A stretch of DNA of 8,376 nt. Origin: a virus. Lineage: Duplodnaviria > Heunggongvirae > Uroviricota > Caudoviricetes. A program made the translations under genes and the position numbers. The stretch lies in the IMG/VR virus record IMGVR_UViG_2671180743_000009; one strand, written 5' to 3'. The notes under the pieces are model-generated. The model made no database searches. It had not been told where the DNA came from and worked only from the letters and a program-made list of their open reading frames with translations. This document shows, piece after piece, positions 1 through 8,330 of this stretch (its first letter is position 1; the number at the start of each line of letters is the position of its first letter).

Positions 1-63
1 GCCGGCACTGCCGGCGGAGGTGCCGTAGGCAATGCCTGTTGATATTTTTTCCATCTGATACAT
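1..63 (-). CDS. S21/EssD-type pinholin (class II holin), N-terminal 21 codons only; gene continues past the window start
   Basis: Reverse complement of 1-63 translates MYQMEKISTGIAYGTSAGSAG, matching from memory the dual-start N-terminus (MKSMDKISTGIAYGTSAGSAG) of phage 21 S and DLP12 EssD. Two in-frame ATGs three codons apart fit the holin/antiholin dual-start motif. Position, first gene after the Q/tRNA region, fits a lysis cassette. Confidence 0.6.
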   Translation of the reverse strand, partial: MYQMEKISTGIAYGTSAGSAG

Positions 64-642
64 ATCCCGCCCCCCGACAGACCTGTGCTATCGCATTAAA
101 AAAGATCGCGTAGCATTCTTAATTCATGAGGAACTTTACCCGCCAGCAATCTGAGTAGCGAAAGCTGTTCATCCCCAATGTTTTTGCTGGCGGGTCCTTT
201 TTTCTACGGTCCTCCTCCCCGGAGGGGGGCATTTCATTATTTTTCTAATCGTTACTGGTGAGAAGGCGGAAGAAAAAGCCAGTTCTTCGCCCCTAAATAA
301 CAGCATGATTCCAGTCCATGCAAAATCTGATTTCCAGCTCACACATACCGAGCGCTGTACAAAAAACCGCCAGCCAAGGCAGTTAAGAGTGTGTTCCCGG
401 GGTTTGCTTAGAATATTTTGTAAGTTGTCCGAAGAGATATTTACAACACCAGAATGATGAATCATCAGTCCCCTGCCAGAGGTTCACTACGTAACCTGAC
501 CGACAATGCACCATTCTGGTGCTGAAAAAAGAGCACTGGAACTGCAACAAAACAACATCACAGAACAGGAGATGGTAAGGAGTCAGACATTCCCACACAA
601 TATTGTGTCAGTGCAAATAACAACCTTCGTCTCAAATCTCGC

Positions 643-717
<75 letters not shown>

Positions 718-720
718 ATA

Positions 721-796
<76 letters not shown>

Positions 797-798
797 GC

Positions 799-875
799 TG
801 GCCCACCACCGAGGACTCGAACCTCGCACCGTCAACTTAGAAGGTTGATGCTCTATCCGGATGAGCTAGTGGTGG
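799..875 (-). tRNA. tRNA-Arg, anticodon UCU
   Basis: Reverse complement CCACCACTAGCTCATCCGGATAGAGCATCAACCTTCTAAGTTGACGGTGCGAGGTTCGAGTCCTCGGTGGTGGGCCA. All four stems are Watson-Crick, the anticodon loop is CTTCTAA, and CCA is encoded. The molecule starts with an unusual C1-G72 pair. Confidence 0.75.
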
Positions 876-876
876 T

Positions 877-953
877 TGGTGGCCCTTGCTGGACTTGAAC
901 CAGCGACCTGGCGATTATGAGTCGCTCGCTCTGACCAACTGAGCTAAAGGGCC
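877..953 (-). tRNA. tRNA-Ile2, anticodon CAU (lysidine type, ileX/ileZ-like)
   Basis: Reverse complement GGCCCTTTAGCTCAGTTGGTCAGAGCGAGCGACTCATAATCGCCAGGTCGCTGGTTCAAGTCCAGCAAGGGCCACCA. Anticodon loop is CTCATAA. Acceptor, anticodon and T-arm segments resemble E. coli ileX from memory rather than elongator or initiator tRNA-Met. Confidence 0.75.
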
Positions 954-962
954 GGAGGCAGA

Positions 963-991
963 ATAATAACCATATGTCATCACATCTGCAA
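963..991 (-). promoter_or_regulatory. Candidate sigma-70 promoter for the tRNA array: -35 TTGCAG, 17-bp spacer, -10 TATTAT
   Basis: Read on the minus strand, TTGCAG (plus 986-991) is followed after 17 bp by TATTAT (plus 963-968). The predicted start falls about 3 nt before the 5' end of tRNA-Ile2 at 953. Confidence 0.35.
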
Positions 992-1041
992 ACTCATCTG
1001 ACCACCAGCACGTTTAACGTCCTGTGCCGTTTTTCAGGTAT

Positions 1042-1064
1042 AAAAAAACCCGCATAAAGCGGGC
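1042..1064 (-). terminator. Intrinsic terminator about 80 nt downstream of the Q-like gene (tR'-like position)
   Basis: Minus strand reads GCCCGC-TTTAT-GCGGG followed by TTTTTTT: a GC-rich 5-6 bp stem with 5-nt loop and a 7-U tail. Confidence 0.6.
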
Positions 1065-1142
1065 TCTTTCAAATGTCCATGTCTGCTATTCGCCTCGCGG
1101 TACAGCTTTGCGAAGCGTACAAGAATTGAAGCAGTTTTTACG

Positions 1143-1697
1143 TCAAAAAGCAATAACTTTTTTCTCTATACCAAAAGCCATAACCATTGGTTTGTACAAA
1201 ATAAATTCTGCCACCTTTAGCCAATGCTCAATGCGTCTTTCACAGGTTCTTAAACTCCATTTCGGGTGTGCATCATTCAGCAGTTCAGCCATTTTGCGTT
1301 TGGTCATCCCCCGCCCCTCATACCGTTGCCGAAGGACGCTAATCAATCCTGGATGCTCTGCCAGCACCTCACTTATGACCCGATCAATACATAACGCCTC
1401 TGCATCAGTACAATGCGCCAGCCAGCTCTTTTGCTTACCGTTAATCATATCCCGCAAAAAAGCCTCAAGTTCAGACTTGTTCAGACCTGCTTTTTTCATC
1501 CTCCGGAGCGCCTCGTTAATTGCCGTTTTTGTCAGCTTTTTAGAGGTCAACATCAGGTTAAACATATTCCCCGTCTTACCGCCACCAATATACGACCAGC
1601 GCCCCCACATACGTAGTTTTCCCTGAATCCAGACACTTTCCAGCGTGGTGAGACGAAGGTGTTCTCCGCTTTTTCCTGTATTCGTTGGGTAAATCAT
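1143..1697 (-). CDS. Putative late-gene antiterminator Q-like protein, 184 aa
   Basis: Part of the 1143..1817 ORF, starting at the ATG at 1695-1697. That ATG overlaps the upstream stop as ATGA and has a GGAGG Shine-Dalgarno 7 nt upstream. It is the last gene before the terminator, tRNAs and holin, the usual place for Q. It contains an RMWGRW motif reminiscent of WGxW in some Q families. Call is by synteny and weak motif only. Confidence 0.45.
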   Translation of the reverse strand: MIYPTNTGKSGEHLRLTTLESVWIQGKLRMWGRWSYIGGGKTGNMFNLMLTSKKLTKTAINEALRRMKKAGLNKSELEAFLRDMINGKQKSWLAHCTDAEALCIDRVISEVLAEHPGLISVLRQRYEGRGMTKRKMAELLNDAHPKWSLRTCERRIEHWLKVAEFILYKPMVMAFGIEKKVIAF

Positions 1698-1984
1698 AAA
1701 TATCCCTCCTTTCTCCAGATTTCTTGTGTGCGAAAAACACCTTCTGCATGCATCAGGCGTAATTCTTCTTTGGTGTAATCGCTGGTTTTTACCCGCCCGT
1801 CGATTAAATCGTGGCACGAGCTACAGGCAATCGCTGCCTGCATATCGTGTGGCTTTATCGCTGTTCCGCACGTTCCCGCCAGTCGGTAATGCGCCAGCAC
1901 AGACGTTTCCGGATCGTGATTGCAGTAGCCAGGAATTCTGACGGTGCACATCTGCCCCCGCGCCGCTTTACGTAAATCCACCAT
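1694..1984 (-). CDS. YbcO-like DUF1364 protein (putative zinc-binding nuclease), 96 aa
   Basis: ORF 1694..1984. The N-terminus MVDLRKAARGQMCTVRIPGYCNHDPETSVLAH and the spaced Cys/His residues match DLP12 YbcO from memory. Same length, same position between a DUF1367 gene and Q. Confidence 0.7.
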   Translation of the reverse strand: MVDLRKAARGQMCTVRIPGYCNHDPETSVLAHYRLAGTCGTAIKPHDMQAAIACSSCHDLIDGRVKTSDYTKEELRLMHAEGVFRTQEIWRKEGYL

Positions 1985-3158: not shown

Positions 3159-3314
3159 TTACTTCCTGGATTCGTAGTCTACGAAGACAGCGACCTCCGT
3201 CTGGCCGGTTCGGATTCGTACCTCACAGAGGTCTTTCCTCGTTACCAGTGCCGTCACTATGACGGTTAAACAGATGACGATCAGGGCGATTAACATCGCC
3301 TTTTGCTGCTTCAT
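3159..3314 (-). CDS. hok: Hok/Gef-family type I toxin, 51 aa (closest recalled relative HokD/RelF)
   Basis: Translation MKQQKAMLIALIVICLTVIVTALVTRKDLCEVRIRTGQTEVAVFVDYESRK has the Hok hallmarks: a single transmembrane helix, the RKDLCEV motif and a TGQTEVAVF C-terminus. AAGGAG Shine-Dalgarno 9 nt upstream of the internal ATG. Confidence 0.8.
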   Translation of the reverse strand: MKQQKAMLIALIVICLTVIVTALVTRKDLCEVRIRTGQTEVAVFVDYESRK

Positions 3315-3371
3315 AGCCTGCTTCTCCTTGCCTTTCGGCATGTAAGAGGCTAACCTACATGTGCAAAGCAT
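3159..3371 (-). CDS. mok: mok-like in-frame upstream extension of hok, 70 aa
   Basis: ORF 3159..3371 begins MLCTCRLASYMPKGKEKQAMKQQKAM, the same pattern as E. coli MokC as I recall it (an N-terminally extended Hok in the same frame). Confidence 0.5.
   Translation of the reverse strand: MLCTCRLASYMPKGKEKQAMKQQKAMLIALIVICLTVIVTALVTRKDLCEVRIRTGQTEVAVFVDYESRK
3328..3356 (+). promoter_or_regulatory. Candidate Sok antisense-RNA promoter: -35 TTGCCT, 17-bp spacer, -10 TAACCT
   Basis: Plus strand has TTGCCT (3328-3333), a 17-bp spacer and TAACCT (3351-3356), inside the mok/hok 5' coding region on the opposite strand. The predicted start near 3363 would give an RNA complementary to the mok start and Shine-Dalgarno region, as in hok/sok systems. 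No clean terminator found. Confidence 0.3.
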
Positions 3372-3490
3372 GAAATTGGCCTCAGATTAATGTTAAGCGT
3401 CTTGCCGGACGCGTAATGTTAACTGGGGCTTTTCTCTATCTGCCTTTTGGTGTTCATGCCTGAAGCAGATAGCCTCAAGCACCCGCAGTC

Positions 3491-3541: not shown

Positions 3542-4228
3542 TCACTCCTTCTCTTCTTTACCGTAGTGGAGTTGACCAATTTTGATAAGAGGGCGTCCCT
3601 GAGATTTGCGGTGTAGATTGGTATCGCGCAGAGAATACACACAGCCACAATATTCCTGCTGATAGAATTTTTCGCGCTTGCTGATTTCAATCATACGGGA
3701 CGAGCCGCCCTGCTTGCGCCAGTTATAATCCCAGTACACCATGCCCGGATAATGCGCGACGGCTCGCCGCCCACAGTCGTTAACCTGCTGCATATTTTTC
3801 CAGCGTGAAATGCCCAGTGAACTGCTGATCACACTGAAACCATTTTCAGCGGCGTACAGCGCTGTCCGCTCAAAACGCATGTCAAAACACATGGTGCAAC
3901 GGATCCCTCGTTCGGGCTCCCATTCCATTCCTTTGGCTCGTTCAAACCAGTTGTCTGTGTCGTAATCAGCATCAATAAACGGCACGCCGTGTTGTTCAGC
4001 AAAGCGAATATTCTCATCCTTACGAATTAAATACTCTTTCTGAGGATGAATGTTCGGGTTGTAGAAAAAGATGGTGTAGTCGATTCCCGAGGCCTGAAGC
4101 GCCTCCATCACCTCACCGGAACATGGAGCACAGCAAGAGTGCAGTAGTAGTTTGTTTGCCCCGTTTGGGAGCTCCAATTTGGGCCGTTTGAAATCAGCAA
4201 CTGTCATAAATATGTTTATTGGGGTCAT
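3542..4228 (-). CDS. queH: QueH-like epoxyqueuosine reductase (DUF208 family), 228 aa
   Basis: ORF 3542..4228 carries the ordered motif set I associate with DUF208/QueH: [11 protein letters not shown] near the N-terminus, then [29 protein letters not shown] and YCGCVYS near the C-terminus. Start codon is ambiguous (ATG at 4228 or 4207; neither has a clear Shine-Dalgarno). Confidence 0.7.
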
Positions 4229-8044: not shown

Positions 8045-8087
8045 CTTAGGTTTTTCTACACAAAAATCTTGACCGCCCACCTTAGGT
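8045..8087. promoter_or_regulatory. Candidate repressor operators (CTTAGG at 8045-8050; near-palindrome ACCTTAGGT at 8079-8087) next to a TTGACC -35-like hexamer
   Basis: The same CCTWAGG core recurs at 7497-7502, 7508-7514 and 7534-7539 between dicA and dicC. TTGACC at 8069-8074 precedes the small gene at 8175. Confidence 0.35.
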
Positions 8088-8174
8088 TATTCTAAATTTC
8101 ATTCATCAAGACACCGCACGGTGTTCTCAGCAAACAGTTCCGCTACCCCGGCGTTAAGGGGAAATGGGGTCAAC

Positions 8175-8330
8175 ATGAATACTATCGATCTTGGCAACAA
8201 CGAATCTCTGGTGTACGGCGTGTTCCCCAACCAGGACGGCACATTCACCGCCATGACGTATACCAAAAGCAAAACGTTTAAAACCGAAGCTGGCGCACGT
8301 CGTTGGTTGGGAAGACATTCAGGTGAGTAA
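8175..8330 (+). CDS. Small protein, 51 aa, YdfA-like by position
   Basis: Part of the 8121..8330 ORF, starting at the ATG at 8175 (MNTIDLGNNESLVYGVFPNQDGTF...), with a G-rich Shine-Dalgarno-like sequence upstream. It is the first gene downstream of dicA on the same strand, as ydfA is in Qin. Confidence 0.45.
   Translation: MNTIDLGNNESLVYGVFPNQDGTFTAMTYTKSKTFKTEAGARRWLGRHSGE

Follow-up and report, generated by a model that had tools for sequence, protein, structure and literature searches.

A probable functional tRNA-Arg(UCU) of the argN lineage, with an inherited C1-G72 first pair, in the tRNA array of a lambdoid prophage

Four tRNA Genes Between the Q and Lysis Genes of a Lambdoid Prophage

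The DNA analyzed here (hereafter the window) is the whole 8,376-nucleotide stretch of IMG/VR record IMGVR_UViG_2671180743_000009. Over 8.25 kb, it shares 99.5% identity with a lambdoid prophage located between ybhA and pgl in E. coli FDAARGOS_944. Read along the minus strand, the window carries cI/cro-like and replication genes, a QueH-like gene, a hok/sok locus, the nin region, and a Q-like antiterminator gene, and these are followed by a hairpin with a U-run, a promoter-like site, four tRNA genes, approximately 580 nt, and the start of a holin gene near position 63. The tRNA array thus follows the Q antiterminator gene and precedes the lysis genes. The features relevant to this report are listed below in the order of transcription, with the basis for each call in parentheses.

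1143-1817, minus strand: gene for a Q-like late antiterminator, preceding the array (full ORF; PGAP start at 1697; PHROG 753)
1041-1071, minus strand: strong hairpin and U-run between the Q-like gene and the array (folding)
963-992, minus strand: sigma-70 promoter-like site TTTGCA-18-TATTAT, ending 9 nt before tRNA-Ile2 (consensus scan)
877-953, minus strand: tRNA-Ile2 (CAU; ileZ/ileX-like lysidine tRNA), first in the array (ARAGORN tRNA-Met(cat); Rfam; PGAP tRNA-Ile)
876, minus strand: 1-nt spacer (A) separating tRNA-Ile2, which ends in CCA, from C1 of tRNA-Arg (direct reading)
799-875, minus strand: tRNA-Arg(UCU), 77 nt (ARAGORN tRNA-Arg(tct); Rfam tRNA model; PGAP ends on an identical copy)
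721-796, minus strand: tRNA-Thr(UGU), 2 nt (GC) after the CCA of tRNA-Arg (ARAGORN; Rfam; comparison with thrU)
643-717, minus strand: tRNA-Gly(UCC), last in the array, 3 nt (UAU) after the CCA of tRNA-Thr (ARAGORN; Rfam; comparison with glyT)

All four tRNAs were found by ARAGORN, end in an encoded CCA, and are matched from end to end by the Rfam tRNA model, with scores of 70.5 bits for tRNA-Ile2, 56.4 for tRNA-Arg, 69.8 for tRNA-Thr, and 64.9 for tRNA-Gly. Because the genes lie on the minus strand, tRNA-Ile2, which the first-pass annotation described as the next tRNA, is the upstream neighbor of tRNA-Arg in the transcript. The spacers are only 1, 2, and 3 nt long (A at 876, GC at 798-797, and UAU at 720-718), and so the four tRNAs can come only from a common precursor, as that annotation had proposed.

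The neighbors of tRNA-Arg have recognizable counterparts. The tRNA-Ile2 gene, whose 3′ end reads ...GGGCC-A-CCA at position 877, is near-identical to ileZ of Stx phages. The tRNA-Thr(UGU) gene differs from thrU of the K-12 host only by two D-loop changes, U16C and U20C (74/76), and the tRNA-Gly(UCC) gene is identical to host glyT at all 75 positions. The array looks chimeric: a pair of the ileZ-argN type is followed by copies of thrU and glyT from the host, and tyrU, which sits between these two genes in the host operon, is missing. Among the matches listed, the C16/C20 D-loop form of tRNA-Thr was linked to a tRNA-Arg carrying UCU and G73 in 17 of 17 cases.

The gene upstream of the array matches PHROG 753, “anti-termination protein Q-like” (E = 1.8e-79), and is named a DUF1133 family protein by PGAP. 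The hairpin that follows it has a predicted stability of -18.7 kcal/mol (z = -4.3), which was equaled by 0 of 200 shuffled sequences, and relatives have a comparable ACCCGC...GCGGGTTTT element. This hairpin, which folding confirmed and which a consensus scan for promoters and terminators did not list, is a putative intrinsic terminator resembling tR'.

Just downstream of it, a TTGCA...GTTATTAT block containing the promoter-like site is kept in five relatives, amid flanks that are otherwise about 60% identical. The conservation of this block within poorly conserved surroundings suggests that the array likely has its own dedicated promoter at 963-992, in addition to being crossed by Q-dependent late transcription. 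The location of this site immediately after the terminator hairpin also suggests that the tRNAs may be expressed in the lysogen without late transcription.

Several other aspects of the region deserve mention. No gene is annotated in the RefSeq twin within the approximately 580 nt between tRNA-Gly and the holin start (63-642, minus strand), which is the position occupied by stx in Stx phages. The two ORFs in this interval (383-598 and 169-465) have no PHROG match, and a terminator-like hairpin is present at 384-365 on the minus strand. Farther upstream is a hok/sok type I toxin-antitoxin locus (3309-3484 and 3159-3371, minus strand), with a 117-bit Rfam match to sok and HokD annotated in the RefSeq twin. 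A gene annotated as QueH (epoxyqueuosine reductase, for tRNA queuosine modification) lies at 3542-4228 on the minus strand, about 2.6 kb from the array, and belongs to PHROG 3217, whose function is listed there as unknown.

Boundaries and Fold of the tRNA-Arg Gene

By direct reading, the 5′ part of the RNA is CCACCAC-UA-GCUC-AUCCGGAUA-GAGC-A-UCAAC-CUUCUAA-GUUGA-CGGUG, and the remainder is CGAGG-UUCGAGU-CCUCG-GUGGUGG-G-CCA. Nucleotide C1 corresponds to window position 875, A20 to 856, the UCU anticodon to 841-839, G72 to 803, G73 to 802, and the CCA to 801-799. The sequence forms a cloverleaf with stems of 7, 4, 5, and 5 bp in which 21 of 21 pairs are Watson–Crick, including all seven of the acceptor stem, which begins with C1-G72. 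The conserved nucleotides U8, A14, G18G19, A21, U33, and A37 are present, as is a T loop (UUCGAGU) that fits UUCRANY.

Positions 875-802 align to model positions 1-71 of 71 of Rfam RF00005 with 56.4 bits (E = 2.3e-10), and no stem of this alignment is flagged for a noncanonical pair. Since the gathering score of the model is 29 bits, the gene does not score as a pseudogene, an outcome that the first-pass annotation had named as one that would count against its reading. Nevertheless, the other three tRNAs of the array score higher (65-70 versus 56 bits), as does host argU (72 bits). A plain minimum free energy fold recovers the acceptor, D, and T stems and mispairs the anticodon arm (z = -1.75); thermodynamic folding alone is a poor test for tRNAs, and the covariance model was preferred for the call.

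The gene boundaries agree with public annotation, in which identical copies are entered as tRNA-Arg and not as pseudogenes. On a 100%-identical copy in E. coli FDAARGOS_944 (NZ_CP065613.1), PGAP places tRNA-Ile at 8048-8124 and tRNA-Arg at 8126-8202, neither marked as pseudo. Both the ends and the 1-nt gap agree with those in the window, and the next two genes are called tRNA-Thr and tRNA-Gly. The predicted C start thus finds agreement among ARAGORN, Rfam, and direct reading, all of which give C1-G72, and the claimed distance of one nucleotide from the encoded CCA of tRNA-Ile2 likewise holds, the spacer being the single A876 and the neighbor being called tRNA-Ile by PGAP. We also considered a 5′ register shifted one base upstream to give a G-C first pair, which had been raised as a possible refutation of the C start. 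This arrangement is impossible: A at -1 and G at 73 cannot pair with each other, and the acceptor stem can therefore be neither extended nor reregistered to a G start.

A first pair of this kind is uncommon for the host. Among 86 E. coli tRNAs, 67 start with G, and C starts are confined to three tRNAs for proline (C1-G72) and four initiators (C1/A72 mismatch) (Mohanty, Maples and Kushner, PMC8860583). Counting all proline tRNAs, those with C1-G72 amount to about 5% of the total across 1,546 bacterial species (PMC8860583). From these counts, an arginine tRNA with C1-G72 that works in E. coli would be unusual. Among phage tRNAs, starts other than G are common in our sample, which is biased: 108 of 262 unique sequences do not begin with G. 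Spacers this short are nothing unusual in phage arrays, where 24 of 152 sampled adjacent tRNA pairs outside the argN family are separated by 3 nt or less, and 8 of 152 by 1 nt or less.

Arginine Identity

Arginine identity in bacteria depends on A20, which is the main determinant for E. coli ArgRS, together with C35, U or G at position 36, and A or G at position 73 (Giege and Eriani, PMC9976931). The tRNA-Arg of the window has all of these in the form of A20 (within the D loop AUCCGGAUA), C35, U36, and G73. The 1:72 pair lies outside the determinant set (PMC9976931), and normal arginylation would thus be expected from the sequence, rather than the altered charging that the first-pass annotation had suggested as a possibility. 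We propose that C1-G72 is tolerated because ArgRS reads A20, C35, U36, and A/G73 rather than the first pair. The possibility that the gene is a captured copy of host argU was rejected, given that the two are identical at only 54 of 77 positions and that argU begins with G1-C72.

Membership in the argN Lineage

The array matches the ileZ-argN-argO clusters of Stx phages and also many E. coli prophages. The Stx-phage clusters are described here from database annotation and general background. The tRNA-Arg gene is identical to argN at 64 of 77 positions for the F349 copy and at 61 of 77 for the 933W copy, so the comparison with argN that the first-pass annotation recommended is an apt one between homologs. 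This homology, together with the position after ileZ and downstream of Q, places the gene in the argN lineage, which is found in lambdoid and Stx prophages. The named argN genes carry the anticodon UCG, which reads CGA, and the window gene carries UCU; judged by its sequence, it is an argN homolog with a different codon specificity.

Alignments and ARAGORN runs revealed that the second slot of such arrays always holds the same tRNA body with varying details. The forms below differ in anticodon (UCG, UCU, “UUU,” or “UAU”) and in discriminator base.

Stx2a_F349 argN: anticodon UCG, base 73 U, spacer A
933W argN: anticodon UCG, base 73 U, spacer 9 nt
L092 and L097: anticodon UCU, base 73 A, spacer UU
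Commonest prophage form: loop CCUUUAA (“UUU” with C33), base 73 U, spacer A or G
L022 and L030: “UAU,” base 73 A, not after the CCA of ileZ, base -1 A
Window tRNA-Arg: anticodon UCU, base 73 G, spacer A

The first pair is far more constant. It is C-G in 11 of 11 representative variants that were aligned and also in 933W. At least 19 distinct IMG/VR variants all have C1, although the pattern used for this tabulation itself required C at that position, and one relative (L071) seen in a listing made without this requirement has U1. These IMG/VR variants were collected as T-arm pattern matches and filtered by their match to the acceptor stem and T arm, and their frequencies represent a sample rather than a census. 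Over the 11 aligned variants, 97% of the cells of the cloverleaf are paired and three pairs have changed on both sides; pair 3:70, for example, appears as A-U, G-U, and G-C. These pairing values were reached by 2 of 500 shuffles. The spacer base is A or G in most relatives, and a length of 1 nt is the commonest arrangement, compared with 2 nt for L092 and 9 nt for 933W. Consequently, the C1-G72 pair and the 1-nt spacer, which had been singled out as special features, are both usual in this lineage. The sharing of C1-G72 across the lineage marks it as an inherited trait and not a defect.

Members differ in how well they fit the tRNA model. Rfam scores are 57.8 bits for L092, 56.4 for the window gene, 43.0 for Stx argN, and 40.4 for the “UUU” form, compared with 72.1 for host argU, and several “UUU” variants fall under the Rfam cutoff. 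The window copy and L092 are thus the best preserved of the lineage.

The commonest “UUU” relatives (L003 695-771, L006, L008 7270-7346, and many IMG/VR and E. coli prophage loci) combine U73 and an A51-C63 mismatch with C33 at a position where U is nearly universal. Annotation either names them tRNA-Lys or omits them, and they score 40 bits or below the cutoff. These RNAs could be decaying genes, or could reflect an Arg-to-Lys anticodon switch on an Arg-type body that retains A20. A second, independent scaffold with a lysine-type anticodon occurs in the third slot of one such array (L083 3480-3555, minus strand), where a thrU body has acquired a UUU anticodon (G35 to U) and a change of A26 to G. 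Another pair of relatives (L022 2144-2221 and L030) joins the acceptor stem (CCGCCAC/GUGGCGG, with C1-G72) and T arm of the argN lineage to a different anticodon arm. ARAGORN calls this tRNA Ile(UAU); its context differs, given that it does not follow the CCA of ileZ, and the L030 copy is under the Rfam cutoff. Some relatives might also form an eighth acceptor pair between bases -1 and 73, as in tRNA-His, with A/U in Stx argN, A or G/U in the “UUU” forms, and U/A in L092. The corresponding A/G combination in the window cannot form such a pair.

Among 5,426 complete E. coli genomes, the exact window variant is rare: 16 have it, each in one to five places. Identical copies are also found in several IMG/VR prophages. 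Deposited phage genomes lack it, and their closest full-length match reaches 86%. Among GTDB species representatives, only E. coli and Shigella flexneri were matched by an exact 30-nt pattern, which would miss divergent relatives in other genera, including those with T arms of the 933W type. The far end of the FDAARGOS_944 prophage carries ipaHb, encoding a type III secretion effector (L127 42761-44587), and this gene, along with the restriction of hits to E. coli and S. flexneri, points to a Shigella or enteroinvasive E. coli background for this type of array.

Codon Usage and a Proposed Route of Maturation

The 53 intact coding sequences of the prophage use AUA, AGA, ACA, and GGA at 11.7, 7.9, 13.9, and 13.4 per 1,000 codons, whereas the flanking host genes use them at 8.0, 3.1, 8.0, and 8.6. 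Typical values for E. coli K-12 are approximately 4.3, 2.1, 7.1, and 7.9 per 1,000, relative to which the use of these four codons by the prophage is about two to four times as high. The tRNA-Arg would supply decoding of the rare codon AGA, and its neighbors would do so for AUA, ACA, and GGA, all of which weigh more heavily in the prophage than in the host. This excess fits codon supplementation, as a correlation rather than a proof. AGA is more frequent in early genes (11.9 per 1,000) than in late genes (5.0), even though the array sits in the late operon.

We envision a single precursor RNA for the whole array, produced from the array's own promoter, by Q-antiterminated late transcription, or by both. 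RNase P would then cut at the 5′ end of each tRNA, and the same cut would free the upstream tRNA with a 3′ trailer of 1-3 nt. Cleavage between A876 and C875 would create the 5′ end of tRNA-Arg and leave tRNA-Ile2 with one extra A, cleavage before G796 would leave tRNA-Arg with an extra GC, and cleavage before G717 would leave tRNA-Thr with an extra UAU. These trailers would be trimmed to the encoded CCA by RNase T and RNase PH, which are known to remove trailers of 1-4 nt (PMC8860583). The spacers are too short and too poor in AU for RNase E sites. A precedent is provided by E. coli valV-valW, whose 4-nt UCCU spacer is split by RNase P alone at the mature 5′ ends (PMC2190699).

The nucleotides around the cleavage site of tRNA-Arg are a mixture of favorable and less favorable identities. 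In the contact between the RCCA sequence and RNase P RNA, the discriminator base pairs with U294 (PMC10465520), and G73 appears to fit this contact. The preferred base at -1 is U, which is found in about 60% of E. coli leaders (PMC10465520), and tRNA-Arg has A at this position. In vitro, the identities of -1, +1/+72, and +73 influence both the site and the rate of cleavage by RNase P RNA. Furthermore, a change of G1 to C1 in pheV was not viable (PMC8860583). This result, together with the confinement of C starts to proline and initiator tRNAs, indicates that C1 is not automatically neutral. By analogy with tRNA-Pro, where C1 alters 3′ processing (PMC8860583), an effect of C1 on the processing of tRNA-Arg is possible.

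Weighing the Alternatives

Given these results, we favor the view, with a probability of roughly 80%, that the feature is an intact, functional tRNA-Arg(UCU), the second member of an Ile2-Arg-Thr-Gly array in a lambdoid prophage of E. coli or Shigella, which belongs to the argN lineage and has inherited its C1-G72 pair. Its sequence suggests that it is most likely a working AGA-decoding tRNA. We consider it highly improbable that the gene is instead a decaying or nonfunctional relic in a prophage remnant. Many relatives indeed look degraded, with C33, the A51-C63 mismatch, or deletions and mutations in the D stem, scoring 40 bits or less or falling below the cutoff; PGAP leaves some of them without annotation; and the host prophage contains several pseudogenes. 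The window copy, however, has no such lesions, as its fully Watson–Crick stems, canonical U33, A37, and T loop, and 56.4-bit score attest, and identical copies persist across the genomes and prophages described above.

Other explanations accept a functional tRNA and assign a different purpose to the first pair or to the array. By analogy with proline tRNAs, in which C1 causes RNase E to cleave immediately 3′ of the CCA (PMC8860583), C1-G72 might be a functional processing signal that generates the 3′ end of tRNA-Arg in one step, without exonuclease trimming or polyadenylation. Such a mechanism would suit an array with almost no spacers, and C1-G72 has been retained while other stem positions and the anticodon have drifted, with L071 (U1) as an exception. 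Nevertheless, we regard this as unlikely. The CCA of tRNA-Arg is followed by GC and the structured tRNA-Thr rather than by an AU-rich RNase E site, the discriminator is G73 rather than the A73 of tRNA-Pro, the effect of C1 did not transfer to pheV (PMC8860583), and the conservation of the pair could be plain inheritance among close relatives. Of the hallmarks of proline-type tRNAs matured by RNase E, the gene therefore shares C1-G72 and lacks both A73 and AU-rich sequence after the CCA.

The array might alternatively serve mainly in anti-defense, by providing tRNAs that are not cut by the tRNA nucleases of hosts or competitors (PARIS AriB, PrrC, and colicins), with the C1-G72 body serving as a chassis that these enzymes do not recognize. 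[quoted passage not shown] Relatives with a UUU anticodon on the C1-G72 body have C33 and lack the AriB site UAAUC|A, and a general proposal holds that phage tRNAs evade tRNases through changes in the anticodon loop (PMC10264068). We find this quite improbable as the main purpose of the array. The tRNA-Thr of the window keeps the AriB cleavage site U36AAUCA41, and the identity of tRNA-Gly with glyT indicates that at least this gene acts by plain dosage. The anticodon loop of tRNA-Arg (CUUCUAA) and its A38-G39 step are identical to those of host argU, and tRNA-Arg goes unmentioned in the PARIS study (PMC12409363). For these last two reasons, resistance of tRNA-Arg to colicin D or PARIS was set aside. 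A broader speculation, which strikes us as doubtful, is that the invariant C1-G72 body is a portable chassis for swapping anticodons (UCG, UCU, “UUU” with C33, and “UAU”) in an array that evades cleavage of the AriB or PrrC kind, with C1 also altering 3′-end processing as in tRNA-Pro. If this were true, then the Arg(UCU) gene would be more than a supplement for a rare codon.

Significance and Comparison with Known Systems

On the reading that we favor, an intact argN-lineage tRNA-Arg, the practical meaning of the finding is small: this is a correctly predicted prophage tRNA that is already present in public annotation, and its odd first pair is common to the long-known argN of Stx phages. It is of some use as a natural test case, specifically of a nonproline elongator with C1-G72 in E. 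coli, within an array with spacers of 1-3 nt. Such an RNA could be used to examine how general the effect of C1 in tRNA-Pro on RNase E 3′ processing is, and how RNase P handles a C+1/A-1 junction directly after the CCA of another tRNA. The changes of anticodon on one tRNA body, together with a thrU copy whose D-loop substitution is reported to blunt PARIS cleavage, suggest a wider pattern that might prove more interesting than the tRNA-Arg itself.

The closest known counterparts are the argN genes of Stx phages F349 and 933W, which share with the window gene the C1-G72 pair, the length of 77 nt, the encoded CCA, and the location after ileZ and downstream of Q; phages of the F349 type also have the same single-A spacer, whereas that of 933W is 9 nt. 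The differences are that Stx argN has UCG and U73 rather than UCU and G73, that it contains G-U pairs and the A51-C63 mismatch (43 bits) whereas the stems of the window gene are fully Watson–Crick (56 bits), and that it is followed by argO rather than by tRNA-Thr(UGU) and tRNA-Gly(UCC). Host argU resembles the window gene in its anticodon loop, its D-loop layout of A20-U20a-A21, its length, and its G73. However, its first pair is G1-C72, its acceptor, anticodon, and T stems differ from those of the window gene, and, as a gene of the host, it is monocistronic.

[quoted passage not shown] In tRNA-Pro, G72 and A73 are also ProRS identity elements, whereas the window gene, with G73 and UCU, would have no proline identity, and it lacks the AU-rich trailer. 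With regard to processing, very short spacers and the absence of an RNase E site are likewise seen in valV-valW, in other RNase P-dependent tRNA operons, and in the tRNA clusters of phages T4 and T5. The window array differs from valV-valW in having spacers of 1-3 nt rather than 4 nt and in having one member with C at +1.
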